DNA of 64,000 bases from a virus (taxonomy: Duplodnaviria > Caudoviricetes), in the IMG/VR virus record IMGVR_UViG_3300037400_002261, positions 32,001-96,000 of that record; one strand, 5' to 3'. The translations under genes were made by a program, and so were the position numbers. The notes under the pieces were generated by a model, which worked only from the letters and a program-made list of their open reading frames with translations, was not told the DNA's origin and searched no databases. This document shows, in pieces, positions 6,476-55,800 of the stretch. Numbering within the stretch: position 1 is the first letter of the stretch; every line of letters starts with the position of its first letter.

Positions 6476-7021
6476 ATGGAAAAGATTAATGTGTTAAGCA
6501 TTGAACATTTAGAAGATATCATGATTGAAAATTTAGAGGAAAATAAATCAGTGTCTTTGGTTTCAGATTTTGAAACTGTTTGGGAAATTGCTATGGATTT
6601 TCATAGGTATGAGGATGTTGAATTTGAGTATGTTGATATCAATACCGACTATGACAAGGAGTATTATCTTACTCTCATGATGGATGATGATAACAATGCT
6701 ACTATGGCAATTGAAAAAGCATTTTGTGAAGAAATTGATAATTATCTTGCCACAGATGGTATTGTATTTATTGAAGATACTGTTGATTATAAATATCTTA
6801 CTGATGTGAAAAATAATAAGCATTTAAAAGATGGCGATTTTACACCTATTATCTTTACATTTGATACAGATGATGAAAAAGATAATAAATGTGATGATTG
6901 TTTGTTTGGAAAAGAAGTTACTGATAGTCAGGTACGATTTTTTGTTCCAGCTTGTATGGATGAATTAGTTAAGGCTATTGATAACTTAATGGATAAATAT
7001 ATTGTGGATAATTATAGATAA
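6476..7021 (+). CDS. acidic hypothetical protein
   Basis: AAGGAG RBS before ATG 6476; last TAG-free gene before the suppressor tRNA. Confidence 0.8.
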   Translation: MEKINVLSIEHLEDIMIENLEENKSVSLVSDFETVWEIAMDFHRYEDVEFEYVDINTDYDKEYYLTLMMDDDNNATMAIEKAFCEEIDNYLATDGIVFIEDTVDYKYLTDVKNNKHLKDGDFTPIIFTFDTDDEKDNKCDDCLFGKEVTDSQVRFFVPACMDELVKAIDNLMDKYIVDNYR

Positions 7022-7096: not shown

Positions 7097-7098
7097 AT

Positions 7099-7171
7099 AG
7101 GGGTGTGGTGTAATGGTTCAGCACAGGTGGCTCTAACCCACTTGATCTGGGTTCGAATCCTAGCACCCCCG
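7099..7171 (+). tRNA. amber suppressor tRNA, anticodon CUA, Gln-type
   Basis: Cloverleaf: acceptor AGGGGTG/CACCCCC (A1:C72 mismatch, G2:C71, G3:C70, G73), D arm GTGT/GCAC, anticodon stem GGTGG/CCACT with loop CT-CTA-AC (CTA at 7133-7135), T arm CTGGG-TTCGAAT-CCTAG. Confidence 0.95.
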
Positions 7172-7179
7172 TTATTTAT

Positions 7180-31814: not shown

Positions 31815-34800
31815 ATGGCCGATATTAAAGAATATATTATAAAAATAACGGCGAATGTTGATGATGCCAAATAGAAGTTAGATAGTTTGGCAAATTCTAT
31901 GTCAAAAGTAAATCTTAATAATGGACTTGATTTAGATTTAAAAAAGTCTACAAGCGAAATTACTGGTTCTATAGGAAAAGTTGCTGAAGAAGTAGGAAAA
32001 TTATAGAAAGCATTTGATAAACTAAATGCTGATAAAATTACTAGTGAAGTAAAAGATCTTTCAAATGATTTAAAAAGTTCTATTGATTCAATGAAATCTT
32101 CATTCGAGGGTTTTCAAAAAACATTTGAAGGTTTAAGTGGTGCTGGAGATAAAGGTTTTGGTCAGATATTTAAAGATTTTTCTGAACAAATGAAAGAAAT
32201 GATAGATTCGTATAGAGAAGCTATTAGGGTTATTGATGGACTTAATAATGGAACTATTGCACCCAATCTTTAGGAAAAGGTAGAAGATGCTGTATAGAAA
32301 AATAATAATAGAACGAAGCAAAATGTGTAGAAATAGACCAATGCAATAACAGAAGCATTAAGAGAAAGTAGAACAAAAATAAATAATGCTATTAAAGATT
32401 TTAATGATAATATTGATAGTATAACAGTTGCCCAAATTGGTTCATTTACTGATGAAAATGGTAAGCAAAAATTTGTTCCTGAAGAAGAATTAAGAAGAAT
32501 GGAATTATATGTTTCCAATTTAATTGGAATAATTAAAAAAACAAAACATATCAAAGGTGTTGATCTTAATAAATTAATTTTTTCAAAAATTGGGATGTCT
32601 GAAGATAGCTTAAACGATATTAGAGATGACATACAGAGTAAAATCACCGCTTCTATTGAAAGACGGGAAACAAAAGCTGAATCTATAATCAAAGAACAAA
32701 ATGCAAAAGATAAAGGTGTTAAATAGCCAGTATCAGTCAATATTGATGTTGTTTTAGATGAGGCTTCTATATCAAATGATTCAATAGATGCTATGGTTAA
32801 TAGAATTCGTGAAGAAGTAGTATTTAGAGTTAATGAAAGAATCAAGAATCATCCAATAAAAATACCTATTAGCTTATCAACAGAAGAAGAAATAGTTAAT
32901 GACGAAAAATTAACTGATAAACAACTTGAAAAAAAGACTGAAGAAAAATAGAACAAAAAGTTTGTTAAACAATTAACTGTTGAGGTTAGAGCTATTACTG
33001 ATGGAATGCTCGATGATATTAACACAAAAATAAAAGAACTTAATAAAAAAATAACTTAGACAATTGATATTAAACTTCGACCAGTTTTATTTAGTGAATA
33101 GGAATTGGAAGATGTTGTGTTGCAAACAGAAGAAGATATTAGTGGTATTATTGACGGAAAACATGGTAAACGTGGTATACCAACTGATGCATCAAAATTA
33201 ATATTATCTTCAAATACTTTTGATGAACAATCTCATGCTGTATTAGTTGATATTAGAGATATCGTAGGTAGAATTCTTGCTGCAATAAGTGGAAACATTC
33301 CACCATCTGGTGGTCATCCGATGTCACCGACATCAAATATTCCTCCTACTCCACCTACTCCTCCTACTCCACCATCTGGTGGCGGTGGTACACCTCCAGT
33401 ATCTCAACAGAAACCAATTAAAACTGTAACTATTAATAAACCAAATGTTGTGATGTAGAATTCTGGAAATGTTAATACTGGTAGAACAATTGGTGTTACA
33501 CCAAATTAGACACCATAGCAAGAAATTCCAAAAGGTGGTTCATCTTCTACTCCTACTCCAGTAACGGTTGTAGATAATGAGCCAAAGTAGAAAAAACCAT
33601 TTTCGTTTGAAAAATATGCAAGATATTTAACAATTGGTAGATTATTAAATAAAGAAAGGGCTGGAGAATTAACTCAAAATGAAATTGAATATGCAAAAAG
33701 TTATGGAAGGGAATTATTACAAAGAGCCGCAAATGCATTAGTATCTGATATAAAAGGGAAATCTATAGGCAATGAAAAAAATATAGTTGTTGGAGCTGCC
33801 AAAAGAAATTATGATAGATTTACTATTGCAAGAAATAATTTAATCGAAAGAGAAAATAAAAGAGAAGATTTATCAAATAAATTATCATCGATTGGTTATT
33901 CTCCAAAACCTGTGATTAAAAGTTCTTCAGTAAAAGCGTTGGATTTTATTTTATCGAAACTCAATAATATAAAAAAAACGACAGAACCATTATCTGAATC
34001 TTATAGAACTGGATTAAGTGATAGAAATTATTTTACTCAAACTGTTGGTGATAGTAATTTAGCATTTTGGGGAAGAGCAAATCAAAATATTGAGGATTTT
34101 CAAAATGAAGTATTTGATGTCTTTGTAAAAGGAAAAGATTCAATAGCAAAAATGAATACTAGAATTAATAAGCAATTTGAACGTGAAATGAATGCTACTT
34201 ATCTTGTAAATTCTGGCATTGGCGGCGAAAAGGTTACACCATAGATAAAACGTCTTATTGATTATGATATTATAAATGAAGGTAGAGATCTTAAAGGGCA
34301 AAGATTAGCACAAAGACTTGCTGAAGAACATGAAACCCCAACAAGAATATCTGAAATGCGGGCAAATTTTATTAGAAAAAGAATGAGCGAATTATAGATG
34401 ACACCATAGCAATTGGATGCCTTGAAAAAAGAAAAAGAAGAATTGTCAGCTATATATATGCCTGCTATTCTTGGTTCTAATGATGAAAAGTCTCCATTAA
34501 GTATGGAACTTTTAGCAATTGAGCAACGCTTAAAATATCTTAATGATACAATTGATAAAGTTGAAAATGACGCTGAAATAGTACGTTATAGAGGAAGTTC
34601 TGATGAAGATATAGTTAAAGAACAAATTCGTAGAGAACATATGGCTAGGAGAGTTTCATTAGTAAGGCAAACTTCTCCGTTAACAGATGATCAAAAAGGT
34701 GAACTTGATAAATATAGAAAAGAATTAATTGAAAAAGAAGCTGAAAAGATTGCTATGTCTGTTGTAAAAGAAGGTTTTGGAAATAATATTTTCAAAACGT

Positions 34801-37800
34801 TTAATTATGGAACTGCAAAGTCTGATGTTAAAAAAGGCGGTAATAATAGTGATCAAAAGCGTATAAGAAAACTTGAAAGTTATGGTCTTGAAGTTGATGA
34901 AAAAACTGGAAGATTAATTTCATTTAAAACACCAGAAATTGCGAAAAAATGGGGTGTTGATGATTTAGAAGAAAGGCTTCTTGAAGTTGGTTCATATGGT
35001 GAGGAATAGTTAAAAAAACAACGTGATATTACTGAAGTGCTTTCTGAAAATGAAGAAGATTATAGGAAGTATATAGCTGCTTATGATCGTCATAGGGCTG
35101 GAGAAGCAACCAAAGAAGATGAAGAAACTATTAAAATCTTAAAAGGTAAATTAGCCGAACACGCATTATATTTTGATAATCAAGAAAGAATAGATTAGAT
35201 TATTTCAGAAAATATGGAATTAGAAAAAAGATTGAACAAAAAAGGAGCTACTAAAAAAGATAGAGATAAGTACAATCAAAATAATTTAGAACTTAAATAG
35301 ATTGCTCGAATTACTCCAGATAGGTTCTCAGAATTTGATGTATATCAAATGGCTCAACGACAAATTGGTAGAATTGATCATTCAAGAGATTTAGAAAAAG
35401 ATATTATGGAAACTTATAGGAATGCTATGATATCAATGGTTAGTGGTGATACTATAAGAAAGATGAGTAAAAGCACATATAAAAAACATTTATTAGCCAT
35501 TTCTGAATCTGGCAAAGAAATAGGAAAATTAAGTAGTACATTACCAACTGTAATGGGTTCAAGAGATAGAAAAGGTATTTTTGTTTAGAGATTCGATACT
35601 GGATTGCCAGATTGGAGTTATTAGACAGATATTGAAAAAGAATAGCGTTCAAAAGCTTATAACAGATTGCAATATGCAAAGCGACATGCATTGGGATATG
35701 AAATAGGTAATGGTATTCGTGATATTAGTGGTAGATTAGTAAATAAAACAGAAATCCCAGTTGAAAATATGAAAGTCGCAAATCTTGGATTATCTCCTAA
35801 AACTGCTAGAGCATATGCTTCTTTACCAGCAATTCAAGATATCTCTGCTCCATATAAAGATGAACATGGAAGACCTATTTATGGGAAGAATGGCGAGACA
35901 TTGTACAAACCAACGAATACAACCCCTGAATAGCTTAGAATGTTTTCTGATGTCCTTGGCAATGTTATTTCTGAATTAAATACTACTATTGCTTCTCTTC
36001 CAACTGACGAAGCTGAAATTGCTAAATTAGCTGAAGATAGACTTAGTAAAGCTACTGTAGTTCCATGGTTAGAACGTATTGAGTTATTAGATAAAGAAAT
36101 CGATGAAAGGGAAGAATATAATAAAAAACTTGAAAGTGGAGAAATTCAGGGACAAAAACGTGCTACATATAGTCTTAAAAAAGAAAGAGATGCATTACAA
36201 AGATCAGTTGAACAATTAGAAGGAGGTGCTTATAGTTCTAAGTATAAAAAAGATAAAAAAACTGGCGAATGGGTTTTAACTGGTGGTGAAAAATTAATAC
36301 AAGATAGAGAAGAACTTGCTAAATCTATATAGGATGAGTAGAAATTAATAACAGCTGTTTAGAAAGCAACTGGTATAAATGATGAAGCAGTTAGATTAAT
36401 AGAAACCATAAAATGGGCCAGAGAAGAAAAACGAAAACTTGGATTACATACTATAAGTAAAGGTGAAGATAGTTAGTATGCTATTGCAAAATAGGATTAT
36501 GACACAAAGAAAGGAATTTATGATAGAGCATAGACTACTATTAGAAATGGTGGAAGTGTTCCTGATATAAAAAATATTGAAGCGGAATATAAATAGGCAG
36601 AGGCTGCATATCAAAAGATATTAGGTGTTAGATTAATTGAAGCATGGGTGGAAAAAAATCTTGGTGGCAAAATATCAGAATTTACACCAGATAGTAATTA
36701 TGCTGTTAGTACATTAGATGATGCTAATGCGTTATATGAGCAGTACGATGATATTATAAGAGAATCTACAGAAGCGTTAAGAAAAATAATATCTAAAAAA
36801 TCAATCAATGATTTATTATAGGATCTTGATGTTCTAACTGCTGACAAATATGGAGAAAAAATTAAAGCGAATCCTATTAGTGATATGCTTGAAGAATTAA
36901 GGGAAATAAGAGAAAGACAAGAAGTTCTCCGTGGAGAAATAAGAGAACAGGAATATCAAATGTCAAGAACTGGAGAAGAATTACAGCCCATTAAAGAAGC
37001 TCGTCTTAAAAAGATTAGAGAAGATATTAAGAAGAAACGCACAGATGCAATTTCTATAAGAGATACTAATGTAAGATCAAAACAAATTATTGATAGTATG
37101 ATAAATGTATCTGATGTTATTGCTGCTGATGAGTAGATAAGAGCACAAGAAAAGGCTAATATAGAAGAAAAACAAAAAGAAATTGATAGTATAATGGCAA
37201 AATCTACTGATGATAGAATTGCTGATATAACTGAAAGTTTTGCTAATCAAACTTCTGAAATATAGACATAGTTATCTGAAGAAAACAAATTGTTAATTGA
37301 ACAACGGAATGCAATTGTTAATGAATATGTCGAAAGTACAAGAGAATTAAAACAAAGAAGAACTGCATTTAATCAAGCTGATTTGGAATTAGAAGAAGCA
37401 GTTGATGAAAGAGATAAATTATTATCTGTAAAATCTAGAGAGGAAATATTAAGTGAAGATTCTGAATATCAAAGAATTCAGAATGACATTAGTCAACTTG
37501 AAGAAGAAATTGCTAAATCTCCTGCTTCTGAAAGAAAAAAATTAAGATTAGAAAAATTAGGACCTTTAAAAGAACAACTTCAACAAAGAATTGAAGATAT
37601 TAGATATGGTTATATTGACCCAATACAAGAATCCTTTGATGAGTTAAAAGATGCATTCGAAGTAAAGGGTATAAGAGGTGAAGAGCTTAGAAGAAAAGCA
37701 ATTGCTTTTAAACAATTAGAGGGAGAAGGAAGAAATATTGGTGCAAGAGTTGATTGGTATGAAGAAGATACGATAAATGGTGCTTCTCCAATAGATTTTG

Positions 37801-40800
37801 CTGATTCTGTTATTAATGAGGAAGTAAATGCAAAACAAGAAGTTGTTGATCTTGCAAAAGAAGAATTGGAAATTGCTGCTCAAAGATAGGAAATCGCAAG
37901 AAAAGCTTTAACTATTGCTTCAACAAGCACACCAGAACGTACTGAAATTGAAGCTGATTATAATGCTGCTACTAATAGGTATATTTCTTCAAAAACAAGA
38001 TATGAATCAGTTGAAGAAAAATATTTAAAAGCTAAGAATAATTATGATAATGCATTAGAAAAGATTGCAAAAGGTGAAAACGTTGCAAAATTTGATAAAA
38101 TAAAAATGGAATTTGAAAAAATATCTCCTGAGTATGACAGAGTTAAAGCACTTTATGAATCTTCTAAAGAAGCATATTTTAGATTTGGTGGATTATTAGA
38201 TGCTATTAATGGGTCAAATATTGTACCAGAAATTGATGAAGCTGCTTCTCAATTTATGAGAACTCAGAGTTCGATTGAAAATCTTGAAAATGCATAGCAT
38301 AGATTAATTGAAACTAGAAAAAGAGAAATAGAATTAGCAAAAAACGATAATAAATATATGGAATATTTGTATAATCAAGCTGGTATTCCAGTACCTAAAG
38401 GAGCAAGAGTATATGATGAAAAAACAAAAGAAGCAATAAGAAGAAGAGATGCTGAAGAAAGAGAAAGAAAAAAAAGACAAGCTAAAGAACAAGAATAGAT
38501 TGATACAGCAGCAATTAGTAGATGGCGTTTTGGACTTGGTGGTGTTGAAGAAGAAAAAATGAATGCAAGAAGAAAAGCTAGAGCTAATATAAAAGCTTCA
38601 TCAACATAGAATAAGCCGAGAGAAATGTTCGATTGGCGTTTTGCAGATATGAACAAAGATCAAGCCGTTATTGCAAAATTAATTCAACGATTTGCTGTAA
38701 AAAAATATAGGACTGAAAGATAGGATAGATATTTAAAATCTCTTCAAATTCAGGCATAGAACATTGGCTTGAAAATTAATGCAAAAGGATATGTAGAGCC
38801 ACTCGTTTCTAAAGAAGAATATGAAGCTAATACAGAAGCTCATCCTATTCCTAAATTTACTTAGCAAGAACTTATACAACGTGGGTTATTAACGGCAAGT
38901 AACAAATATAATTCGCAAAGCAGTTAGCAATCACAGCAATCTGGAAATCAACCTGATAATGTTTTTGAACCTGAAAAGAAACGTCAACAAGCACCAATGG
39001 AAGGTGTAGTTGATTATGGAACGGAAGAAGAATATTATCGTCAGATGGGAATGCAAGTACAAGATATTGAAAGTGAAGTAGATAATATTGGTGAAAATAT
39101 CAATGCAAACACAAGAAAAGGAAATACTCAACAAGGAAATGATTTTATAAGTTATGCTACTGGTAAATTAAATAAATTGAATCTTGGAGCACATAAGAAT
39201 GAAGCTGTAGCATTATGGAATTCATTAAAGCCTACAATATCAAGTCGTGAAACTGCTGATACAGTTATTGCTACTATTACTTCAAAACTCAAGGAATGGA
39301 GTTCAAAAGATAATCAATCACAAAAAGAAACTTCTGCTTAGAAAAGACAAGAAAATGATTTTGTAAATCAGGCTGCTATAAAATTAAATAAATTATAGCT
39401 TGGTGGGTTTAAAGAACAAGCTGTTGCGCTTTGGAATTCTTTAAAACCGTCTATTATAGATCAGGAATCTGCGGATAATGTTGTTGCTGTTATTTCAAAT
39501 CAATTAAAAGAATTTAATGAAAAAAATGGCCCACAAGGGTTTGTTGAATATGCTAAAGGTAAATTAAATAAATTAGATTTAGGTAATTATAAGGAACAAG
39601 CTGTTGGTATATGGAATTCTTTAAAACCATCTATTATAGACTAGCAGTCAGCAGATAATGTGATATCAGCTATTACTTCTAAATTGTAGGAATGGAAATC
39701 GAATGATGAAAAAGCACCTCAAGCCACTCCTGGATCTGGTCAAGCAAGCGATTCTTTGGAAAATGTTGCAACAGAAGGTCAAGCCGCTGCTTCTGCTGAA
39801 TCTCAAGTAGCAGAAAATGGATAGGCTGCTGCATAGGCATTGGAAAATATTGCATCTATGGGTGATCGTTTTAAATCTTTAAAAGATCAATAGGTTGAAA
39901 ATGAAGTTCTTACAATGGAAGAAACGCCAAATAACAATAGTGTAGATCAATAGTCAGACACTATTGAAAATCAAATTAAATTATATGATAACCTTGGTAG
40001 AAAAATTGATGATAATAAAGCCAAAGTGTTATAGGGAACGAAAGCTATAGATGCATAGAATCAAGGCATTCTTACATTATTCCATTCGTCAGATGATGTT
40101 TTTGATAAATTTGATCCATAGAAAATGGGTGTATCTGGTGCTAAGTTTGGTAAAGGTGCATATTTTAGTACAACTCCCCAAAAAATATATGGCAATAAAA
40201 TGACAGAATGGTATGCATATGTAAATAAAATATTTGACATAATGTATACTTAGCTGAATAATGAAGAAATCGAAAATATAATTTCAACTTGGTATAAAAA
40301 TTTTTCAGAAGAAATAATTGCAAATGCAAGAAAAGCTTTATCAACAAGGGATTATAAATCATTATATAGCGATGAATTACCCAAAAGAGATAATGAAGTG
40401 TTATTACGAGATAAGAAAATTAAATATATAGCTGGTTCGCCATTTTATGATGATTAGGATTTTATTGACAAAGCAATTAAAGGTCTTGGATATGATGCTC
40501 TTCAAGTACCAGGTGGAGGTATTGTTGTTTTTAATTTAGACAATATTATTCGTGCAAACAATTTAGTACATGATACAATTGATGAATTATAGTAGTTAGT
40601 AGAAAATCGTCCTATTAATAGTAAAAGTGGCATGTATATGATTCCTGCAACGATTGATGTAAATGATTTATCAAATGAAAGTCCGATTTCATCGGGTACT
40701 GTGCCACAAAATGTTGGTTCTATTACAGATAGTTTACACGATATGTAGATGGCTGGAAGTAGTGCTACAGAATCTATTGTTTCAGGTATGTCTGATATTA

Positions 40801-43800
40801 GTGATAATTCTGAACAAGCTATTACATCAGTTAAACGTGTAGTAGAAGCATTTAGAGGAGTAAATGAAGCTAGTGATTCTAATGGGTATTGGTCATCTGA
40901 TTACGATGAGGCAAAATGGTATGCAGAATATGGCGAAAATGTTAAAGAATTATATAAAGGTAAAATCAAATTTGATAAAGCTTACTATACAGATAATTTA
41001 GGTAGAGATAATAATAATGTGAGATATTTAGGTGCTGGTTTTGATGATATATCCAAATAGTTAATAGAATAGGATAGAATATAGAAAGAAGCACATGATA
41101 TAATACAATCTGCATTTTAGAAACATGGTATTGATATTGATTTTGGTACATTTACTAGTGGTTTATCTGGAGATCTTGAAGATAGTTTAAGAAGTGTTGA
41201 AGATTTATTCTAGGGTTAGTTAGACACTATATTAAATGAATGTAAAGAATAGATTAAAATATTTAATGAAGCTGGTTTAAAAATATAGCAATTATTCACT
41301 GAAAGTAATGGGCGATATTTTCAAGGATAGACAGATGATGTTAGTAAGGCAATTTTAGAATCTGGGTTATTTGACGGGGAAATATTTGATAGAATATAGG
41401 ATACTACAAATGGACTTACAACTCATTATAGACCAATTGATGAAAGTCAAATTTTTGATAAGATTTTGTTAGAATCAAATCAAAATCCTGTTTTATCGGA
41501 TGATATTGTAACATTGTATCGTGGAGTAGGTGCAAAAGGTACAAATGGTGCGAAGTCATTGTATCATGATGAAGCGGGGACATTCTTTACTGATAATTTT
41601 GAAGCCGCATTATAGTATGCAGAAGAACTTGAAAATGATATTTATAAGCTGTAGATATCAAGGTCAAAATTAAATGAGATGCTGAATGTTGATGCTTTAG
41701 GATCTTAGTATACAGATATATCATTAGATGGTGTAATATAGACAACCGATGAAATTGCAGAAAAAACAAAAGCGGATGGATAGAAATTAGGCGTTGTATT
41801 CTCTAATGTTAGAGATGGAATAGAGTCAGCTATAACAAGCGTTTCTATCTTTTCAGAGGAGTTGTTGGACTCCGCTCAAAAAATGTCTGATACAGAAATA
41901 TTATATTAGCTTGAAAAAATAGATCCAGAGTTAGCTAAATAGTATCGAGATGAAGGTGGTATCTCCGATAAAACTCCAGTTTCAACTACTACTCTTCCAC
42001 TCCAAGAACAAGACGAAAAACAACAAGAAATTGGTTCTTCTGCTGAATAGTCAGCTTCTTAGGTTCAAGCTGCCGAATCAAAAAAACAATCTGCAATTGA
42101 ACAAACAACAGAAAAGTTAAAAGAACAATCTTAGGTTGAAAGCCAAGTAGTAAAAAATGCTAATCGTCCAGAAAAATATCGTGAATATGATTTAAGTACT
42201 CTTCCAGAGAAAGACTTATATAAGCATTTAGGGTATTCTCGTACTGCATTACGTTCAAACAGATCTAAAGAAAAAGATGCACAATGGAGATATTATAAGA
42301 GTGAGTTAGAGCAAGAATTAACACGTAGAGAATTACCATTAGAAAGAGGTAAATCAAAACCAGAATATTCAGATAGAGATATATCATTAGAAGCAGATAG
42401 TGTTGTTCGATTAGCTGCATCTGAAAGTAATTTAAGTGATCAAACACAAATTGCTAATCAAGAATTATCAAGGTAGGGAGAATTACTTGCAGAAAATTCA
42501 TCAATACAACAACAATAGCCAGAGCAAGATCAAAGTCATATTGTTGAAGGTTTATAGTAGAAAACAAAAGCATAGAGAGAATATAATGATGCGATAGCCG
42601 CATAGCCATCTGCTCCAGATAACGAATATGGTCCAGAAGCAGCTGCTATTGCAAAAGAAGTTGAAAAAAGCAAGTATAAAAGTTAGTCTTAGAGGGCAAT
42701 TCCTGTTATAAATCCAGAAGAAATAGCAATGCCTATGTCTTCTCCTGTTGTTAGTGGAATAGCTGCCCAAGAATCTTCAACAGAATAGATTGCTCAAAAT
42801 ATGTCTGAAGCTACTGCTAGTGCTAGTAGTCTTGCTGGTGCATTAGGCGATGTTGCGCAAAAATCAAGTGAAGTAGCCAATAATACTGCATAGGCAAAAG
42901 ATAATATTGCATTGACAGATGCTCAGAAATCTTCCGCAGAAAATGCAACTTAGTTTACAGGTGAAGAACAAGGTTCATTTAGTAGTTTAGCGAGTGAAAT
43001 TAGAACAGATGTTATTGCAGCTATTGAAGAAAAGAATAGAGCATTATAGGAAGAAGCAAATCTTGTTGCAAAATTAACATCGGGCGAAGGAAATGATTTT
43101 ACTACTCTTGCTAGTAAAATAAAGGAAATAGCTGAATAGGCTGAGAGAATAAAGATTGAATTTGATTTTAGCAATATTGATAAACTTGATAAAAACTTTA
43201 TTTAGCAATTTAAAGAACTTGCTAAAATTATTAGTGAAGTCGATCCTAGTAAATTTATTGCTGTTGGTGAAGCGTTTAAAGGACTTAATATTGATAAAAG
43301 TCTTGGTGATAGTTTTGCTTCTCTTGCTGATGGTATTACCGCTTTTAATGAAAAAGTTTCTGATGAGGGAATTGGTGGTAATAATTTTAATGATTTAATG
43401 AATTTAATTAATCGTATTTCTGATGCTGGCAAACATATTTCTGACATGGCAGAAGTTTTAAAGGCAAGCGGAAAAGCTGGTCGTGGCGTATTTGGAATGA
43501 AATATTCCAAAGATTTCGATACAGAAGAATAGATGCGTGAATATATGGATTTAATGAAATATCTTTCTAATCCAAGCAATATGGTTAAATCATAGAAATT
43601 AACACTTCAAGGATTAGAAGGTGGTAGCATTTAGGCTAAAGATATGATATGGGCGCAGGATTATTTGCAAAAATTAGATCAAGCAAGAGAACTTCATAGA
43701 ATATTAGAAGAAAATAATCAATTAGAAGAATCTGGAAGAAAAGCACTTGATAGAACGTGGGAAAATTTTGGTATCAATCAAGCGTCTTCTTTGGATGCTG

Positions 43801-46800
43801 CCAGAAGAGAGATTAATGATGCAATAGATGAAACGTTAAATAATTACAATAAGCTTGCGAAAAATAATCCAGTATTAGTAGAAGAATTTTCAAAAGGTTA
43901 TGACCAATTAGGTGAAGCTATAAAATCAGCAAATGCCGAACTTAGAAATGATGCAGATATAAAAAAATATAAATAGAATATTAGAAGCGCATATGATGAA
44001 TTTAATAAATTTAGCAAAATGAATCGTGTAGCTTTTGGAAAAGATTAGAGCATGAAGATTTTAGATACTGAGGGGCAGAGTTTCAACTCTGATAGTGCGA
44101 AAGAATTTATATCTAACTATGTAAAAGATAATTATAAAAAAGTATTAAAAGATGTAACACAATCCACCAAGGTTGTAGATGGTGATGAGATGTCTGTATT
44201 TACTGCGCAAGTACAAGATGCTAATGGGGTTGTTCAGACATTAAAATTCTCATGGTCTGAAGTAACAGAATAGATTCGTATGTCTGCTAATGAAGTAGAT
44301 TAGAGCAAAACTGGTATTGGTGGTATTATTGATTCTATTACTGGAAAAGTAAAACAACTTTCAACATATTGGACTGCTCAGTTATTTAATCCATATAGAC
44401 TTATTGGATATGTAAAACAAATAATGAACGTGGTAAAAGAATATGATACAGCAATGATGGAAATTAGAAAAGTATCAACAGAATCTGCTAAGTCTTTAGA
44501 TAACCTTAGATTAGATAGTTTTTCGATGGGAGAACAAGTCGGTTCTACTGGGAAAGATATACTTAGCAGTGTTGCTGCTTGGAAACGTCTCGGTAAAACA
44601 TTTGAAGAAGCACAAGAAGCTGCGGTAGCATCCAACTGGTTATTAAATGTTTCTGAATTTACTAATATAGATGATGCTACAAAATCTCTTGTATCAATGA
44701 CATAGGCTTTTGATGATTTAAGTTATGAAAGTGCTATTGATAAATTAAATGGTGTTGGTGATGCATTTAGTTCATCAACAGACCAAATTGCTTCTGGTAT
44801 GTAGAATGTTGCTTCTGTATTACAAGTTGCTGGAAATGATGTAGATCAAAGTATTGCATTATTAGCGGCGGCTAATGACGTTACATAGGATATGAGTAAA
44901 GCATCTATGGGTGTTCGTACAGTTGCTCTTCGAATGGCTGGTACACAAGAAGCAAAATAGCAATTGGAAGAATTGGGTGAAGATACTAGTGATTTTATTG
45001 TTCAAACTCAATCAAAAGTTGATGCTCAAGTAAGAAAATATACTGCTACTGCTGCTAATCCAAATGGTATTAGTGTACTTGAAGATAATGGAAGATTAAG
45101 AGATACTTATTCAGTATTGCTTGATATAGCAAAAGTTTGGGATTAGATTGTAGAAAAAGATAATAAGTCTGGAACAAATACATCAAATGCTTTACTTGAA
45201 TTGCTTGCAGGTAAAACTCGTTCTAATGTCCTTGCTTCTATTCTTCAAGCTCCAGATATTTTAGAGAGTGCATATGAAACTTCAAAAAATTCAGCTGGTA
45301 TTGGATAGAAAGAGCTTGACATTTATCTTGATTCTGTCGAAGCAAAGTCAAAACAATTAACTAATAATTTTCATGAATTGGCAAATATTACAATTAATTC
45401 AGATGGTCTTAAAACAATGCTCGATATAATTAACTCTATTCTTTCGGCTGTTAATTCTCTTGCAAAATCATTTGGAGCGTTAAAAACTGTAATTGGTGGA
45501 ATTGCTAGTTTTGCTTTATAGAAAAACGGTTTAGGTATTTTAAATTATGATATAAAAAAGGGTGCAGCAATAAATGGTTAGAGTTTCGTTAGTACTTTTA
45601 TAAAATCAATTAAAACTGGTTTTGTTAAAGATGAAACAAGTTATTTATTTAAAGACATTTTAAAACCAGATTAGGGATTTGAGGATCAAATTAGGACAAT
45701 ATGGGGAGGAAGTATAGATTCATTTACTAAATCATTTAGTGATGCTAATTTTGCCAATTTTATTAATAATTATGATAAAGCGAAATTAGCTACAATGTCA
45801 GCGCAACAAGTATAGACTGAATATAATGCTGCACTTACGGCAACAGGCAATACATTAGGCAAAGTTGGGACAAATCTTGTATCATTTGTAGGAAACATGT
45901 TAACTGTAATGGCTGTTGTAAAAGGTATTGAATTATTATTTAAAGGTATTTATACAATAGCTACATGGGATGAGAATTTAATCAAAAAAGGACAAGAAGC
46001 AAAGAAAAATATTGACGATATAAATAAATCATATACAGAAGCTAACAAATTAGTGGAAGATTTTGATGAAAAAGAGTATCGTAAGCTACAATCAAAAAAA
46101 GATAATGAAACTATTTCAACAGAAGAATATGAAAGATTGGCATCTATCAATAATCGACTTGCTGAAACGTTTCCGTCTCTAGTATCTGGTTTTGATGAAC
46201 AAGGTAATGCAATTATTAACATGGGGGATAAAGCTGGTGACGCTTCAAACAAATTAAACGAACTATTAGAACAAGAAAGAGAACTTGCTAATTTCCAAGT
46301 ATCTTAGAATTTAAAAGATGTTGCTGCTGGAGTGAAAACTAGATCAAAATAGATAGCTAATGATATTATAAAATAGAATAATGTAATAGATTCATTAGGT
46401 CCAATATCTGAATAGATTGGGAATATAAAAGATGAATTATCTGGCAGTCTTAGTGCATTCAATGTTCAACTTGGAAGTAATGCTGATGATTTATTAAAAT
46501 ATGATATGAGTACAGCAGCCATGTTATATCAAACAGCTTTAAACGATGCTGGAATTTTTACAAAGACACCAATAATTGAACCAGAAGTTGGGAAATATTA
46601 TATAGAACCAGTTCTTGATGATGTAACAAATGAGTAGATCGAAGATGCACAAGGAAGATTTCTTAATATGCTAGAAAAAGCTAATTTGGATAGTACAATA
46701 TCTGAAAAATATTTGGATGCATTAAAAATTAAGGCGATAGATGAAAAAGAATTAAAAGCAGAATGGAATTCAATTGTTCCATCAATTATATCATCTATGG

Positions 46801-49800
46801 AACTTTATGATGAATTCGATAATATTGGCGAAGATTTTCAGAAGGTTATTAGAGATGGTATAGCTAAATTAGATATTACTAGTCTTTCAACTGATAGACA
46901 AAATGAATTTGCGAGTGATCCAAGAGCGTTTATAAGAAAAATGTTTTTAGATCCTATTTCTGATGGTATGTTGAATTCTAAAGGTACTATAAAATAGGAA
47001 AAACTAAAACTTTTTAATTAGCTTTTATCTTTTGATGGTAATGATTTAAAAAATAGTGATTATACTAATCAAATAAATCAAATTATATCTCAAATTACAG
47101 ATATTCCAAATAAATAGGCTGAAATTCGTATTGCATTAGGATTTACATATGAAGATAAATAGGGGAACGAGATTTGGAATGTAGACGATGCTAGAGAAAA
47201 ATTATTTGAAAATATTGGTGGTTCGATTGATTATGTAGATGGCATCAAAAGAATTAATAATACTATTGGAGGTATTTCATTTGAAGATTTTTCAACATTA
47301 GGTCAATCTGATTTTGAAGCCATTGATTATGCTTTAAAAAATATGAAAATACCTGATGATATTGAACTTTCGTGGGAAAAGCTCCTTAATATTATATAGA
47401 AAGCAAAAGAGGAAATGAAAAATTCTCCGAAGGTTGAAAAAGATGGAAGCCTTGCATCACTTTTTAATGATGATAAATACCAATCAGATAGTGAAAAGTA
47501 TGAAAAATCTCTTTCTTCACTTACTTCTGCCCTTGAAACATTACGTACAGAGGGTGAATTAAGTAAAGATGCTACCAAAGAATTAATAGAGCAATTTCCA
47601 GAGTTGGCTTCAAAAATAGATGATACTGGAAGAATTACAGAAGATTTATTGAGTAATGCTATGGCAGATGAACTTGCTAATTGGGTTAAATTAATAAAAG
47701 ATGCAATGAAAGAAGCATCACCAGAAGAGTAGAAAGGTATGCAAAAATATATAGATACATTAATAGCAAGTTATGGAGAATTGGGAATATCTGCTGAAAA
47801 AGCAAAAGAACAAGTATACAAATCGCTTGTAGATACTGATGCTTTAGGTGGCACAACTAATTAGATGGCATAGGTACAAGATATAATATCTGCGCTTGAA
47901 GGAAAATATAGAAAAGATTTAAATTGGGAAATTGTATGGACACTTGCAGTAAATGATATGTTATCTCCAGATCTTGAATCTACATTTAATGCATATGATG
48001 GTTTAGAACTTGAATGGAATATAAATATTAATGAAAGAAAGTTATAGGATATTCAAAGAAAATTAGGTTTAGGTCAAGCAACCAAAGGTCGAATATAGGC
48101 TGATTAGTCAAAAAAAGATGCATCTGGTCATATTCTTACTGAATAGGATTATGCTACTCTTGGAAGGAATCTAGCATAGGAAGTTAAATATAATAAGGAT
48201 GCAGAAAAAATTGCATTTGATGAATTTACTGAAGCTGAAAGAAAAGCTAATGAAAATCCTTTACTCAATGAAAACCTAGTTAATTATCAAAATAAGATGA
48301 AAGCATATGAAGAATCAAGAACAGCTACTGCTAATGCTGAAACAGAAGAACTTCAAAACACTGTAAAACAATATCAGTCTGAATCTGAAATATTACAAAA
48401 CGCATATCAGAATTTACAAAATGAATCTAAAGAACTTGATAATGAAATAACTGAACGTACTAATCTTGGTCTTGAAGCGACTGCTAATCAAATTCAAAAC
48501 AGAATCCAAGGTTCGCAAGCGCAAATTGAATCTCTTGATGCTCAAATTCTCGCAAAGCAAGAAGAAGCTAATAAATTTGCAAGTGATACCAGATTTGGAA
48601 CTGATAGTCAGTTTTATAAAGATGCTGTTTCTGCCCAAGATGATCTTCGTAGTCAACAAATAGAACTTGAAAATAAAATTCTTGATGACAATCTTCTTCT
48701 TAATGGTGGAATGAGAATTAATGAACTTTCAGCCGAACTTACTGATTTACAATCGGTTGCAACAGATGTTCAAGATGCAATGTCGTTTAGAGAGGCTCGT
48801 GGAATAAAACCAACTGTAAAAGATTATCAGAAACTTACTAAGAATAGTAAAGATTAGATTAAGAATATTAAAGAACAAAATGATAAATTAAAAGACCAAC
48901 AAAGATATCTTGTTGATAATTATGGAGAAGTTGCTAGAACATCTTAGAGATATCGTGATATTCAATCACAAATTGATAGTAACAATGCTTCTCTCCGTTC
49001 TCTCGCATAGAGTCAATTCGAATGGGGAAATCAAATGGCACTTGGTTCTATTTAGAATATTATGGATTCTTTCAGTGCTGCACAGTCTGCTATGGGTAAA
49101 GGTCATTTAGATGATACTTCTACATTATTGAGTCTTATTGATGCAAATCGTAATTATGCAGAAGCATTAATGACAACTACAACTGGCACATATGTTGATG
49201 CATAGGCTATGGCTGAATTAGCGCAAGAACAAGGTGAGCTTACTATCTCGATGATTGATGCCGAAAAAGCCGCTGAAGCTATGAACTATCAAAAGAATGA
49301 AAGTGAAATTTTATCACTTGCTAAATCTATTGATCCAACTATCAATTCTATTGAAGACCTTAATAGAGAAATTGCACAAAATCCAGATTCACCACAATGG
49401 TCTGAGATACTCAACCTTCAAGATGCTAATAAAGATATTCAAAGTACAATTGATAATCTCCAAGCAATGAAAGAGCAAATGCTTGCTACTACTTCTGCTC
49501 TTGGAAGATATCAAATGGCACAATCTACAGCAAATATGTCAGACCCAATGCAGACTATTCGTAATGGAATGGAAAATGCTTAGAAACTTTATGATTAGGG
49601 TTGGTGGGGAATGGATGATTTCACTACCTATGCTGATTTATTGGCAACTAATGAATAGCTTGCTAATGGTACTGCTGTTGATTTCTTTGAAGAGAATAAG
49701 AAAGCGAGAAGTAAATATCTTACAGAAGATCGAAAAGGTGTTGATAAATGGGTCGATGATATGATCGCTAAATCAGAAGAACTTGGAACTAGCTGGGCAA

Positions 49801-52800
49801 AATTGACTGATAAAGGATACAAATTTGACATAGATAGTATGGAAGAGTTTGCTGATGCTATGGGTACTTCGACTGAGTTTGCTGAATATATGCTTATGGC
49901 GATGAAGGATGCTGCTTATGATGTTGATATATCTCGTATTGGTGATCGTTATGCAGAAACATTTGATAAAATTGTTGGAACAGAAGCTAATGCTGGATAG
50001 CAAATTTCGAATTTATTAAATGATATGGAAGCTACTGCTTCTGCTGGTGGAGATATTACTCAAGCTGCTGAATCTGCTGGATAGGCTATTTAGAGGATGC
50101 ATGATGCAGGAGCAAGTGATGCTACAATTAATAAACTTGTTGAAACATATAATGAACTTGGTGAATTGAATGGTTTCCGTATTGACCCGAAAACATTAGA
50201 GATTACCACTAATGTGGATAAATCTGAATTAGAAGTAACTGAAAAAGAAGCTGAGAAACCTATTGATAAATGGATTAAGATTAAAACTAAATATGATATT
50301 TCCGAAGAAGATATCACAAACACAAATAATGCAATTCAAAGGGCATTTTAGGGAAATAAAGCAAATGCTGAATAGTATTTAAAAGATTCTGGTATAAGTG
50401 ATAATACTGCTGCTGAGTTATTTGAGATTGATTTTGAAGATGGGGAATATAAAATTGAAACAGCTGATGCAGAAGCAGCTATTGAAAATCTTGCAGTTAA
50501 AATTGGATTAATAAATGATAAATCTGAAATTACAAATGAGACTGCCCAAGCACTTATTGCTACTCTTGCTGAACTTGGTCTTATTGATATTGAAACAGAT
50601 GTTGATATAAATGATATTAAAGAAGCTGAAGAAAATATTGATAATCTTCACAAGAAGTCTGAGAAACCAGTTAAAATTAAAACTGAAATAGAAAGTGAAT
50701 AGAATCGTGATACAAGTGCTTATTATTCTTCTATTGAACCATTATCTCGCAGAGTTCAATCTGAGCATCAATAGAATTTAGATACGAGTGCTCACTATAC
50801 TATGCCAGAAGCTGGTGAATTAGAACAACATCGTAGAATTGTTTATCAAATTCAAACAGAACTTGCAGACGGTGGAACTACGATTAATAAACTTGAGAAT
50901 TTAACTGACCAAGAAATTGTGGAACGTTTTAATGTCGAAGGTGCTGAAGAAATTCAAATGGTTCGTGATACTATATCTGAAATATCATCATCTGAGGGTT
51001 ATGATCTTGTTGTGAAAATAGATCAAGAATAGCTTGATTCTATAACAGAAGCATTAAACCCAACTGAACAAGAACCAATTATTCCAGAAGTTGATAATAC
51101 TCAAGCACTTGATGCTATAGAAGAAGTGTCTGAAAAAGTAGAAGAACTTGCTTAGAGAATGTCTGAGTTGAAACTTACAGTAGATAATGGTAATGGTATA
51201 GAAGAAGGTGGGTCTGCATCAATAGAATTAGAAACACCAGATAAAACAACATCATCTGGTTCATCGACTTAGGAATAGGTTGTAACTCCTACTGCTATTA
51301 ACTATGCTGATAATATGGTTATTAGTGCTCAAGCCGTAGTAGATAATGTTGATACTTCACAATATGATGGTATACAACTTGATGATAAAGAAGCACAAGT
51401 AAATGTAAAAGCTGATACATCTGAAGCTGAAGGTGAAATTAATACGTTTACAAGTAATCCATTTACTGCAATTGTTAATTTTATCACTGGTAAAAAAGCC
51501 GATACTCCCGAAGAATCATCACAAAGTTCAGAAACAATTACTATGAATTATGAACCTGGTTCAACTGGTGAAGTTGAAGGTGCAATAGATAACGTTAAGG
51601 GTTATGCAGAAAGTAATCCAGCAGAAATACCAATAAATGGAAATAATGATGATGCAAAAGCAAGTGCTGATGAAGCTGAATCATATGCTAGTGGCAAAAC
51701 TCCGCAAATGAGAATTACTGGTAATGCTTCGGCTGCATTAGGTTCAGCTGATGCTGCTGTAAGTGTAATTAATGCTAAAACAGCACAAATTAAAGTATCT
51801 GCTGATACATCTACGCTTGTGAATAGTGTTAGTAATGCTCTTTCTAATAGGACATTTACTGCTAATGTAGTAGCAAATATAACTGGTACGCTGATGAATG
51901 TTGCTGTTTAGAAACCAAGTGCTTCTGCTCCAGTTAAAGGTGATTCTGGAGCAAAAGATGCGCCATTTTATACTGGTACTCTCCTCTCTCATGCTCGTGC
52001 AACTGGTACATTAAAAGATTTTGATGATTATATTATTGGTGGTAAAGCACACGCAAATGGTGATGTTACTATTCCTCAAGATGAAGATTCATTAGTAAAT
52101 GAACTCGGTACAGAATCAATTATAAGGGATGGTATTTGGAGATTAATTCCAGGTGGAATGCATGTAGAACATTTGAAAAAGGGAGATATTGTTCTGAACC
52201 ATTTGTAGACTCGTGATCTTATTGAAGACGGGAAAGCATTTGGTAATGGTAAACTTATAGGTAATGCATTTGCTAAAGGTACTGCATTTAATGGAATGCC
52301 AGCACATGCTACTAAACGAGACTCAGAAGCTCATAGCAATGGCGATAGTTCAAGAGTAAATCCTGCTCGTCAACATGTTGGAACTTTACCTCAATCTACT
52401 GGTACTGGAAATCTTGGTAAAACAATAGGAGATGCTGGCAATCAAGCACAGGGTGCTGGTCAAGATATTAAAGACGCAGCTGAAAACACTGAAACCGCTC
52501 TTGATAGATTCAAGAAATGGGCAGACTCACTCTTCGACTGGATTGAAGTCCGTATGGAACGTCTGCAACATTCTATTGATAAGTCAACAGCATAGGCTGA
52601 ACTTGCAAGAACATTCTAGAAGAAGAATTCACATATTGAAGACGCAATGACAGTTCTTCAAGGTCGCAATACTAAAGCTGAACAGAAACAAGTCACGAAA
52701 GAAATAAAAGAAGAAAAAGCTGCTGCAAAGAAAGCGGGAGCAAATCTTAAAAAGACCACTTATGGTAATATAGATATGAATAATCGCCAGACGATTACTT

Positions 52801-55800
52801 GGGATAATAAGAGTCTTAAGAAGAATAAGAAAGCACTTCAATCTCTCGATCCAGATGCAAAGAAGAATTGGAAACAATATTCTAAAGACCTTAAGGGTAC
52901 TACTTCTACTGTATTTGGTGCGTCAAGTACATATAAGTTTGACGGCAAATCTATAGATATTGCTTTTAGTCCGATGCTTCAAACAGATAAGGGTGCTGAG
53001 ATGTTAACTCAAGATACCATAGATAAATACATTAGCACTCTTATTAAAAATGCAAATGGAGATACTTCTAAACTGATAGAACTCGATGTTGAGGGTGCTG
53101 ATGTCGGCGGTAAGAGAATTAAAGGTATTCTTGCCGATGTTGGTAAGTCTGCACGAAAAACAGCTGAACAAATGCATTATGTTGGATCTTTTGGCTCTAT
53201 AGAAATGGCTAAACAAGAACGTCAATCTCTCAAGGATCAAATGACTGGTAAGGTTAAACAAGATGAGCAAGGTGCTACTCGTTATTATAAACAAGCTAAT
53301 AATGTACAGAATAAAGCAATAAATGAGGGTGTTCTTTCTGCTGACAAGATTGCTGAACTTGTTAAGTTAATAAAGAATGGTAAAATTGATATTGAAGAAT
53401 ATAAAGCTATAAAACATACTGAAAATGGAAAAGAAGTTGAAGAAACTCCAGAATCTGAATTTATTGCAGCTTATAAAAACTGGTATGATAAAGCTCAAGA
53501 AATGGAACTTCAATATTATGAAGACCGTCAGTCTCTTATTGAGATGGAGCAAACTCAGCTTGATAATATTACTGAAGAGTTTGATAGTCGTAGTGATTTA
53601 TTTGAATCAAGGTAGTCAAGGATTGATTCTGAAAAACAATTAAGTCTTGCTAATGGAGAAGATCCGAGATCTAAATCAATTAAACAAAATGTAAGCAAAT
53701 AGTTAGCACAACAAGACTTTTTGAGAAATAATCTTGATGAGGAAGCTTATGCTTATAAACAAGAAATGGAAGATGCGATAAAAGCATTTGGAAAAGATAG
53801 TAATCAATATCGTTAGGCATAGGCTCAGTATAATGAAATTATTTAGCGTAAAAATGAAGCTGATTTAAAATATATTGAAATGCAAAAAGATTATGAAAAA
53901 GAACGCCTTGACTTTATTCAAAAAAGATATGAAACTGATGTGAATTATGCTGAATCTGTAAAAGCAACATCAGAATCTCTTACTTCTTTATATAGAGCAC
54001 AGGGTAAGGCAGAAGACAGTAAAGATATAAAAAAGACTTATAATAAATAGATAGATTAGCAGGAAAAAGTCACTAGTCTTCTTTCAGAAGAAATGGAAAA
54101 TTATAGAACTGAATTAAAACGTGCTAAAAAGATTTATGGCGAAGGTAGTGACGAATATAAAGAAGCACTTACAACATATAAGGGAATGAGTAAGGCTTTA
54201 AATGAAAGCAAAGAAGCTACCATTCAATTAAAGCGTGACCTTATGGAACTTGATATTACTGTTATTGGATATGGTATTGATAGACTTCAGCATAAAGTTG
54301 GATAGATGGGTTCTATAACAGATCTTATTGCAAAACGTGGAAAACGAGCCAACGATTCTACTTCTGGTGTAAAAGAATCGGATTATACAAATCAAATTAG
54401 TATTAATAATGACATCAAAAAGAAATTACAAGAAAGAATTGATGCATTACGAGAAGAACAAAAAGGTTTAGATGAAAATAGTCAAGCATATATGGATCTT
54501 GAAAATAGAATTTGGGCTGATAGTGACGCAATGATTGACCTTATGTCTCGTAATGAAGATTTGGCTCAACAAGTCCGAGAACTTCGTTGGAAACCGTTTA
54601 ATGAACTTTCTGATAAAATCGATGACGCTATTGGTGACTATGACCACCTTATATCTCTTATGAACGAACAATCATTCTTTGATGATTTTGGTGATGGATA
54701 TAAATTAACAATTGATGGTCTTAGCGCACTTGCTCTGTATGGCGAATAGATTGATGCTAATGAAAGAAAGATTGCTCTGTATCGGGAAGGTTTAAAAGCA
54801 CTTTCTGAAGAATATAAGAATCGTAATATTGGCGAAGAACAATATATTCAGTAGTCAAGAGAATTTAAGGGAGTTATTCAAAGTTCTGCTTCTGCTATTA
54901 AACAGGAACGTGAGCAAATAATAGCACTTTATAAGACTCAAATGACCAATGAAGCTAATGCTCTTAAGAAAAATATTGATGCTTATAAGGAATTGCTAAA
55001 TCGTAAAAAGGGGTACTACGATTATGATAGACAATTAAGTGATAAGAATAAGAATATCCAAATGCTTGAACGTGAACTTCGTGCATTAGAAGGTGTTGCT
55101 GGTGCTGAAGCTGCCGCTGAAAGAGCTAAAATTGAAGCAGATCTTTATGAAGCAAAACGTGATAGAGATGATACTGTACAAGAGCATACATATAATCTTC
55201 GCACACAAGGTCTTGATGATTTAGAGAAAGATATTGATGAAACGCTTGATAGAAATCTGAGAGCAGTTGAAGCAAGCACATCTGTTTAGGATTAGGTTGT
55301 ATCTGATATGTTAGGCAAAGTATTACTTAATTACAATACCGCTTACGAAGGTGCTGGTGGCATAAATGAAGTGATTGGTTCTGCTGGGACAAAGACAACT
55401 GAAACTACTACAAAACAAACGGAAGACAATAATAAGATGCTTAATGAAACTCGTAAAAAATATGCAACAGATGTTCAATTAATGAAAAACGAACTTGACT
55501 CATTGATGGCTAAAAATGCCGCCAATAATACTGAGCAATATAAAGCTACCGATAAAATGCTAACAGATACAAAAACTGATTATAATACTGTCTATGGCAA
55601 TATTCAACAATTAATAACAGAGACTGGAACTAAAGTGGGTACGGAAGCGGAAACTTCTATGGGAAAAATGAAAGAAACTATTTCCACTGCCATGAAAACA
55701 ACAGAAGAAGGTATTGATAAGTGGATTGAAAAGAATAAAGATAAAGGATTTACAATTGAAACTAAACTTATAGAAACTGGAAACGAAGGTAAAACAGACG

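Follow-up and report, generated by a model that had tools for sequence, protein, structure and literature searches.

The 64,000-nucleotide stretch of DNA analyzed here (the window; positions 32,001 to 96,000 of IMG/VR record IMGVR_UViG_3300037400_002261, a virus of the Duplodnaviria, Caudoviricetes) encodes a giant tape measure protein (TMP) with a very long extension N-terminal to its PhageMin_Tail core, and this extension bears three domains of the ADP-ribosyltransferase (ART) superfamily, here called D1, D2, and D3. On balance, and with some reserve, we lean toward the view that this recoded SPbeta-like TMP carries an ART effector module that is delivered to the host – with D1 as its likely catalyst and at least D3 as a probable partner. 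A sequence-only reading of the same DNA had described three tandem ART copies. All three do appear to be ART-related, but they are not equivalent: D1 is a canonical H-type domain, whereas D2 and D3 form a separate, rare, and divergent branch (R-type) that Pfam misses. The peptides quoted in that reading recur exactly, and at the coordinates it gave, when TAG is translated as glutamine across 39999-42002: TLFHSS...GKGAYFSTT...GLGYDALQV...IVVFN in D1, EAFRGV...GYWSSDYDEAKWYA...GLFDGEIFDRIQD...HYRPIDESQI in D2, and TLYRGV...GTFFTDNFEAALQYA...GVVFSNVRD in D3. Domain boundaries defined with hidden Markov models (HMMs) fall within a few codons of those it proposed.

Reading TAG as glutamine yields one continuous frame of 8310 sense codons that contains 164 TAG codons, no TGA, and only the terminal TAA, while the two alternative frames of the same stretch contain 338 and 1149 TAA and TGA codons. 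Under the standard code, nothing but short open reading frames (ORFs) is found across 34-48 kb. The window also encodes a predicted suppressor tRNA with a CUA anticodon. We assign TAG to glutamine because, at the seven TAG positions of the terminase TerL (9624-11390), the aligned SPbeta YonF has glutamine at four, each in a conserved context; the same kind of argument has been made for TAG-recoded phAss-1 phages (PMC10607447). The uninterrupted frame, the tRNA-CUA, and the YonF glutamines together make the translation premise sound. In-frame TAG is absent from the leftmost genes of the window (1-7021) and present in structural genes, and homologues that use the standard code align across the TAG positions without a break. 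TAG accounts for a variable share of glutamine codons within the giant gene: 5 TAG versus 3 CAA in D1, 10 versus 4 in D2, 5 versus 0 in D3, and 5 versus 10 in PhageMin_Tail. In public protein sets the gene is present only as fragments of 36-103 residues (P0002, P0003, P0004, and P0012).

The sequence-only reading had named the carrier as a TMP, and profile searches and gene order agree. PF10145 (PhageMin_Tail) matches the giant ORF with 53.5 bits (cut-off 33.2) over profile positions 6-190 of 201, and the ORF also matches the TMP families phrog_4211 (E 5.5e-64), phrog_10871, and phrog_28. It occupies a tail-module position in a gene order that runs from TerL (which shares 49% identity with the YonF proteins of SPbeta and phi3T) through the portal and further head and tail genes to the giant ORF, followed by a 280-amino acid gene and a 1430-amino acid minor-tail/fiber gene. 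On this evidence we assign the ORF as the TMP of an SPbeta-like siphophage recoded from TAG to glutamine. SPbeta YomI has 2285 residues, making the window TMP ~3.6 times as long. Beyond the ART domains and PhageMin_Tail, Pfam identified no further domain in the 8310 residues.

Several features of the carrier stand apart from its ART domains. If the entire protein acted as a ruler, 8310 residues at ~0.15 nm per residue would correspond to a tail longer than 1 micrometer. Two motifs resemble TMP C-termini, one (NELGTESIIRDG...IPGG...KGDIVLN) at nt 52098 and one (WTHDGEIIRMADG...LPQGTQVIP) at nt 56412; fusion of TMP-like units, in tandem or as an extension, may thus have produced the ORF. Just upstream of D1 (~39140-39740, residues ~2443-2640) lie three tandem repeats of ~60-70 residues each, with the pattern (D/G)F(I/V)..A..KLNKL.LG...(E/Q)AV..WNSLKP.I...(E/Q)(T/S)AD.V...I...L.E(W/F), for which we found no family match.

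D1 is almost certainly a relative of ART-PolyVal, as the sequence-only reading had proposed. D1 matches PF18760 directly (25.9 bits, E 1.9e-5, profile positions 7-114 of 140) and has a weak PARP match at its strand-2 G-x-G-A-Y-F region. Exhaustive searching of 1.84 billion cluster representatives with HMMER identified 18 proteins, including D1 homologues that pass the PF18760 cut-off: P0018 (42.0 bits) and P0009 (50.4 bits), the latter with a PARP match and PhageMin_Tail as well. A D1-family profile, searched against a database of 5.8 billion sequences, retrieved 28 long proteins. Approximately 20 are TMPs of 1.6-3.7 thousand residues with PF10145, and at lower scores ~10 are classical polyvalent proteins with PF18760 (E 3e-15 to 1e-4). 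At the family level, hhalign matched the D1 family of TMPs to canonical PF18760 domains with a probability of 99.4% (E 4e-20, 165 columns), a resemblance that exceeds chance.

A joint alignment of these families defines a shared pattern. The first half reads hh[YF]H.[ST]..F..FD, G.G.Y[FL], and Y.n[IV], and is followed by a variable helical insert; the second half reads [LI]GYD[GA], a last strand x[EQ]x[VI]xF, and then QIK or I.RA. The active site of ART-PolyVal has been described as a histidine in strand 1, a tyrosine in strand 2, and an aspartate in strand 5, and the family has been grouped with Tox-ART-HYD2 (Iyer et al. 2017, PMC5512222). The sole aspartate conserved family-wide after the insert is that of GYDG, directly before the penultimate strand. 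Its counterpart in a structural model of D3 (described below) is L100, next to G101, which opens strand 101-109; L100 thus occupies exactly the position of ART catalytic acids. In D1, H2757, Y2783, and D2894 align with the conserved histidine, tyrosine, and GYDG aspartate of canonical members. Judged by the alignment, the strand positions of the D3 model, and that published description, the GYDG aspartate would be the strand-5 catalytic aspartate and the H-Y-D triad of D1 would be complete. The sequence-only reading had looked for a catalytic glutamate in the last strand and reported it as not evident; that rule does not apply to this family, whose H-Y-D site, by our alignment, has its acid in GYDG, and the aspartate is kept in D1 and D2 and lost in D3. 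The strand-1 histidine is invariant throughout the D1 family, and the closest relatives of D1 (P0005, P0009, and P0019) have glutamine in place of the GYDG aspartate. With its own H-Y-D residues in place, D1 is the likely catalyst of the module.

A phmmer search of PDB sequences with P0001 (the translation of 39999-42002) returned nothing, and the D1-family profile returned from the same sequences only non-significant PARP14 rows (E 0.36-0.4). Even with E allowed to reach 1, a six-frame PF18760 search of the window's own record was negative, though hmmscan of the recoded translation does match, and we take this as a sensitivity limit of the six-frame route. PHROGs and NCBIfam searches with D1, D2, and D3 individually yielded nothing informative.

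For D2 and D3, Pfam returned no match, PF18760 included, even at E up to 10. The two domains are related to one another (BLASTP E 0.002). As further relatives, the exhaustive HMMER search yielded only P0006, which is D2-like, and P0016, which has two copies; with two copies in P0047 and one in P0048, both retrieved by a profile search, there are eight copies in all. Each of the eight has an arginine in strand 1 ([FY]R[GA][VIF]) instead of the ART-PolyVal histidine. The R-type consensus begins with [FY]RG. / G.[FW][FS][TS][DN]..A..YA / h[YL]....h, continues through L.VD.KG..W..I.[FY].G / TTDEIA..AK..G[YH].GV.FKNI.D, and ends with h.AIF....hK. A MAFFT joint alignment of D1 and D2 placed the R-type rows on D1 with motifs in register, and is unusable as one multiple sequence alignment.

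The sequence-only reading had staked its proposal on structure prediction finding an ART split beta-sheet, and for D3 this check did not refute the idea: prediction points to such a fold. An AlphaFold2 model of D3 from a 10-row alignment (pLDDT 76.4, pTM 0.73) has the order of elements of an ART: beta1, beta2, helix, beta3, beta4, small hairpin, helix, beta5, beta6. VIA-align was used to compare the model with 48,161 PDB representatives, and most of the best 30 rows are ART-fold proteins. The best match is ParT (Z 7.4, rmsd 5.2, 124 aligned residues), followed by the Xre-RES and VPA0770 RES toxins (Z 6.3 and 6.2) and MbcT (6.0), and then by diphtheria-toxin homologues (5.8-5.2), anti-CRISPR chain 6kyf (5.4), PARP2, tankyrase, and PARP1 (5.3-5.0), and exotoxin A. 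Each of these Z values is middling by the standard that the tool itself sets; what counts is that the list is so uniform and that the matches span the entire domain. In a Foldseek search of the PDB, the top rows are all tankyrase PARP domains (E 0.011-0.08). Against BFVD, a set of predicted viral structures, six matches pass E 1e-3 (range 8e-6 to 1e-3). The named ones are an 'ART-PolyVal-like domain-containing protein' and a 'PolyVal ADP-ribosyltransferase' (E-values of 3.9e-5 and 3.4e-4; TM scores of 0.55 for the query and 0.49 for the 167-amino acid target), and many more ART-PolyVal names appear further down the list. The nearest viral structural neighbors of D3 are ART-PolyVal proteins, and D3 very probably has the ART fold, in keeping with the earlier proposal.

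The resemblance of D3 to ART-fold toxins calls for a restricted interpretation. ParT, RES/Xre-RES, MbcT, and diphtheria-toxin/PARP domains are its best PDB matches (Z 7.4-5.0 over 100-138 aligned residues), but identities are 7-16%, the catalytic residues are absent from D3, D3 has no antitoxin-like neighbor, and the Z values are middling. On the model, the likeness speaks to fold only. The site of D3 reads R-F-L where the family has H-Y-D, and among D3-type copies the aspartate is retained only in P0047a (GHDG). With this R-F-L triad, D3 is most likely non-catalytic.

A bridging protein connects D3 to ART-PolyVal. Within a set of 43 sequences, the D3-type HMM matches residues 933-1018 of P0046 (E 4e-6), a segment that falls within a PF18760 domain (832-1024; 93.2 bits, full-length profile match). 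P0046 has a strand-1 histidine but a D3-type second half, NPMVVDLKG...GNDGIIVRNVED...FVAFEPTQIK. In the reciprocal search, the ART-PolyVal HMM matches P0016 weakly (E 1.5e-4) in the same half. Comparison of R-type and ART-PolyVal profiles by hhalign gave probabilities of 8-42% (P 3e-4 to 5e-3), with P 0.44-0.84 for reversed-sequence controls. We therefore treat the R-type group as a putative divergent offshoot of ART-PolyVal, mainly on the strength of the structural comparisons and the P0046 bridge. The canonical polyvalent protein P0036 contains at residues 2049-2113 a cryptic D3-type half-domain (LLVIDGQGKNWNDLTY...GYNGVLFKNIVDN), ~80 residues N-terminal to the ART-PolyVal domain that Pfam detects in it, and R-type-like ART remnants may thus be under-counted in polyvalent proteins.

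D2 differs from D3 in both architecture and site. The D2 model and alignments show that D2 and its homologue in locus L001 have an extra helical insert of ~85-100 residues after a YLG.G element, and this insert is missing from D3-type copies (alignments A2 and A6). An HMM of the four short D3-type copies matched each half of D2, at 7.8e-4 and 9.3e-4 (E 8e-7 for the whole sequence). The D2 site reads R-Y-D, with LFDGE standing where GYDG would be, and so departs from H-Y-D at its first position. An AlphaFold2 model of D2 has a pLDDT of 64.8, with C-terminal strands below 50, and fold searches with this poor model (VIA-align and Foldseek/BFVD) were dominated by the insert, returning helical-hairpin matches or nothing significant. 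Those searches give no verdict on the fold of D2. Its homology to the D3 type upholds the earlier designation as ART-like, and from that homology D2 probably has the ART fold.

Association of ART domains with TMPs is recurrent, with D1-type domains in at least 20 TMPs from metagenomes. H-type ART domains occur with PhageMin_Tail in P0007, P0008, P0009, P0014, and ~15 further proteins, and R-type domains in P0006/L001, whose D2 homologue (L001 4525-5283) sits within a TMP, and in P0048 (91.7 bits). The gene for P0047 follows YomU-, YomW-, and YomN-like genes in a tail module of SPbeta type. The ART is always N-terminal to the PhageMin_Tail core, at a distance of ~500-1300 residues. Since a number of these loci are read with the standard code, the fusion is independent of recoding. 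Only the window's TMP, within the analyzed set, has both H-type and R-type domains in one protein. A sister metagenomic contig, L011 (1-10097), is a single open frame of 3365 codons when TAG is read as glutamine (38 TAG). Its TMP core is 70% identical to that of the window and its D1 56% identical, with LFHSS, GAYFS, GLGYDS, and GGGIVVF kept. L011 has no D2 or D3, and its D1-to-core spacing is ~450 residues shorter; D1 is therefore the conserved element and D2-D3 an accessory cassette. In tblastn searches of GenBank phage isolates, neither the three-domain region nor D1 by itself had a match at E 1e-3 (the only match at E up to 1 has E 0.6), and scans of IMG/VR with D2 plus D3 or with D1 as single queries found no relatives.

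The closest known parallel is the polyvalent proteins. ART-PolyVal domains, present once or in as many as 12 copies, form a hub of these proteins, which are predicted to be packaged and co-delivered with DNA (Iyer et al. 2017, PMC5512222). D1 shares their fold family and motifs (strand-1 H, G-x-G-x-Y-F, A..Y, and GYDG), the nearest viral-model neighbors of D3 bear ART-PolyVal annotation, and the window TMP resembles polyvalent proteins as a very large multidomain protein among late/virion genes with several ART copies. The differences are that the carrier here is a TMP (the phrase 'tape measure' is absent from PMC5512222), that Pfam found no MPTase, ParB, helicase, or other usual partner domain, and that in D2 and D3 arginine replaces histidine and both escape the Pfam model. 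The window TMP plausibly works like a polyvalent protein, though Pfam gives no grounds for placing it in the class as defined by several unrelated effector domains (MPTase, ParB, helicase, methylase, and others) in one virion-delivered polypeptide.

T4 Alt and MuF-ART (VIP2-like) proteins provide the functional model proposed here, as virion-packaged ARTs that enter with DNA and modify the host at the start of infection. They differ in belonging to the R-S-E clade (Alt/VIP2), in being separate proteins of ordinary size, and in being packaged, by way of a head-targeting or MuF domain, into the head instead of the tail. TMPs with embedded enzymatic domains are also known: SPbeta YomI/CwlP (muramidase and peptidase), mycobacteriophage TM4 (Rpf-like motif), and T5 Pb2. 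As proposed for the window, the TMP is there a vehicle for an accessory catalytic domain acting at entry; unlike an ART, which needs cytoplasmic NAD+, this cargo acts without a cofactor on peptidoglycan or membrane outside the cytoplasm. An ART in a TMP thus implies membrane crossing. A 2022 survey of viral NAD+ and ADP-ribose (ADPr) systems reported NAD+-ADPr components in only 16% of siphoviruses and described head-packaged ARTs (Alt, N4-ART, and MuF fusions); the phrase 'tape measure' is absent from it. Full-text literature searches found no paper describing an ART-TMP fusion, though absence is no proof, and the related papers concern separate genes. The architecture seems to be visible in public protein sets yet undescribed.

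In line with the pre-early delivery suggested by the sequence-only reading, we propose the following sequence of events. The TMP would be built into the virion and exit the tail before the DNA at infection; the ART module would be threaded into the cell along with it and then refold. D1 could then draw on the NAD+ of the cytoplasm and ADP-ribosylate a host target ahead of all phage gene expression, with at least D3 probably acting as a non-catalytic partner that binds ligand or target. Because it needs NAD+, an ART can act only in a cytoplasm – that of the newly infected cell, which we favor, or that of the producing cell. What the analysis shows is the reading frame, the identity of the TMP, the family of D1, the fold of D3, the recurrent fusion, and the accessory status of D2-D3; we infer how the module is packaged and translocated, that it is catalytic, and what kind of target it has, and we rate delivery together with catalysis in the infected cell at slightly below an even chance.

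A number of observations weigh against this proposal. The direct PF18760 match of D1 lies below the gathering cut-off of 31.2, its split beta-sheet fold is ascribed from family membership, and the identity of its catalytic aspartate comes from alignment and one paper's description in place of a structure. Its last strand, GGGIVVF, has glycine at the second, less conserved E/Q position held by most relatives; the close relative P0009 likewise has glycine there (SSGLVVF), and we regard this as a caveat that, on the alignment, leaves the triad unaffected. The D2 model is poor, and the hhalign links between R-type and ART-PolyVal profiles cited above are weak. Pfam identified no processing protease domain in the giant TMP. 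A globular domain from the middle of a TMP would have to reach the cytoplasm, and each chain contributes ~600 residues of globular domains, with three or more chains to house. Folded domains of 17-25 kDa from at least three chains exceed the lumen of a tail tube; the module would thus have to be unfolded, located elsewhere in the virion, or cleaved off.

The alternative that survives best, although we consider it unlikely, is that all three domains are pseudo-enzymes: relics of ART effectors kept as structural, spacer, or binding modules that carry out no ADP-ribosylation, with a possible role as plug, as knob near the head, or as docking site for chaperones. The loss of two of three site residues in D3, the replacement of H by R in D2, the E/Q missing from the last strand of D1 but kept by most TMP-borne relatives, the glutamine that P0005, P0009, and P0019 have for the GYDG aspartate, and the dispensability of D2-D3 in the sister phage would all fit such a history. 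It accords less well with D1 itself, in which H, Y, and D are retained, as they are in the sister phage at just 56% identity, and with the invariance of the histidine across the D1 family. Variation of the H-Y-[E/D/Q] kind is normal among active ARTs, and recurrence of the fusion in 20 or more TMPs points to a selected function.

It is more doubtful still that the module works in the producing cell or on the virion, acting late on virion proteins or phage DNA and then being removed or left inert. The gene is late and, with 164 TAG codons, translatable only with an active suppressor tRNA, and globular domains in mid-TMP would fit a tail lumen poorly. A free-standing late enzyme would nevertheless be simpler, and physical co-delivery is suggested by many unrelated phages in which the module is obligatorily fused on the N-terminal side of the TMP core. 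The polyvalent-protein relatives have also been interpreted as delivered effectors (PMC5512222).

We give slightly less credence again to the second suggestion of the sequence-only reading, that the domains counter NAD+-based defense as a sponge or sensor, binding NAD+, ADP-ribose, or immune signals and transferring nothing. Degenerate ART folds often retain nucleotide binding, and the D3 model resembles RES, MbcT, and ParT, all NAD+-utilizing toxins. Sequestration by a few TMP chains per virion is however implausible against millimolar NAD+ and doubtful for signals, and D1 retains its catalytic residues. Finally, the doubt that the giant ORF is one protein at all – with TAG terminating to leave many short peptides, or with the frame a misassembly – is effectively refuted: standard-code gene callers do break the region up, and P0002, P0003, P0004, and P0012 are pieces of it, but the frame lacks the TGA and internal TAA codons that crowd its alternatives, the window supplies its own tRNA-CUA, standard-code homologues run unbroken through the TAG positions, YonF has glutamine where TAG stands, and L011 is also a single open frame.

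Beyond the delivered-module proposal, we can offer only a tentative and rather unlikely generalization: that the TMP is an injection vehicle for cytoplasmic NAD+-dependent effectors in a set of uncultivated Firmicutes siphophages, pairing an active D1 with an exchangeable R-type pseudo-ART cassette that sets target or ligand specificity. If true, it would mean that the N-terminal part of the TMP crosses the membrane, and would establish a tail-lumen route for pre-early takeover or anti-defense that is distinct from head-packaged Alt, MuF, and polyvalent proteins. Known TMP cargo acts on the cell wall; an NAD+-dependent TMP enzyme, if confirmed, would mean that part of a tape measure works in the cytoplasm, and would bear on the fate of TMPs after ejection. 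The theme of virion-delivered ARTs, familiar from T4 Alt and polyvalent proteins, would extend to siphophage tails. The analysis also defines a rare R-type ART-like subfamily missed by current profile libraries. With 8310 residues and 164 amber codons, the carrier itself marks an extreme of late-gene recoding, and standard-code gene calling conceals such architectures in recoded phages.

Table 1. Coordinates of the giant tape measure gene, its domains, and the suppressor tRNA within the window.
Feature	Position (nt)	Strand	Residues and sites	Basis
Suppressor tRNA, anticodon CUA, decodes TAG	7098..7172	+		ARAGORN
Giant tape measure protein (TMP) gene	31815..56747	+		In-frame stop counts; PF10145; phrog_4211
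D1, ART-PolyVal-type	40056..40592	+	2748-2926	HMM envelope
D1 triad (putative)	40083-40085; 40161-40163; 40494-40496	+	H2757; Y2783; D2894	Alignment
D2, R-type ART-like	40836..41480	+	3008-3222; R3014 (nt 40854), Y3025 (nt 40887), D3187 (nt 41373)	
Helical hairpin insert in D2	41046..41303	+	~3078-3163	Model helices 79-104, 120-128, 136-164
D3, R-type ART-fold (predicted), degenerate site	41505..41870	+	3231-3352; R3236 (nt 41520), F3258 (nt 41586), L3325 (nt 41787)	
PhageMin_Tail (PF10145) core of tape measure	44523..45158	+	4237-4448	

The IMG/VR record that contains the window is 107,285 bp long, with a completeness estimate of 54%. A tyrosine recombinase gene (phrog_1 integrase, E 2.7e-29; 24660-25664, four in-frame TAG) lies within the tail module, an arrangement also seen in locus L005. 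In L005, which comes from a related phage, a group I intron (RF00028, 77 bits, full-length) occupies 2265-2566, at the 3' end of a tyrosine-recombinase-like gene in the tail module. The TMP homologues of the standard-code relatives L005 (~8932), L006 (~9733), and L001 (~7101) all stop inside PhageMin_Tail, at profile positions ~86-122 of 201, and are followed by a gap and then further ORFs. TAG recoding does not extend these frames, and Rfam found no group I intron at the break sites. For the split L001 TMP, recoding of TAG, TGA, or TAA was rejected, and the breaks include scaffold gaps (N runs). The N-terminal part of the L001 TMP (~3700-3900, in the frame of ORF 2492-4348) contains a VHSHP...SVADLD motif resembling JAB/MPN metalloproteases, which, if real, could be a processing protease for TMP cargo.

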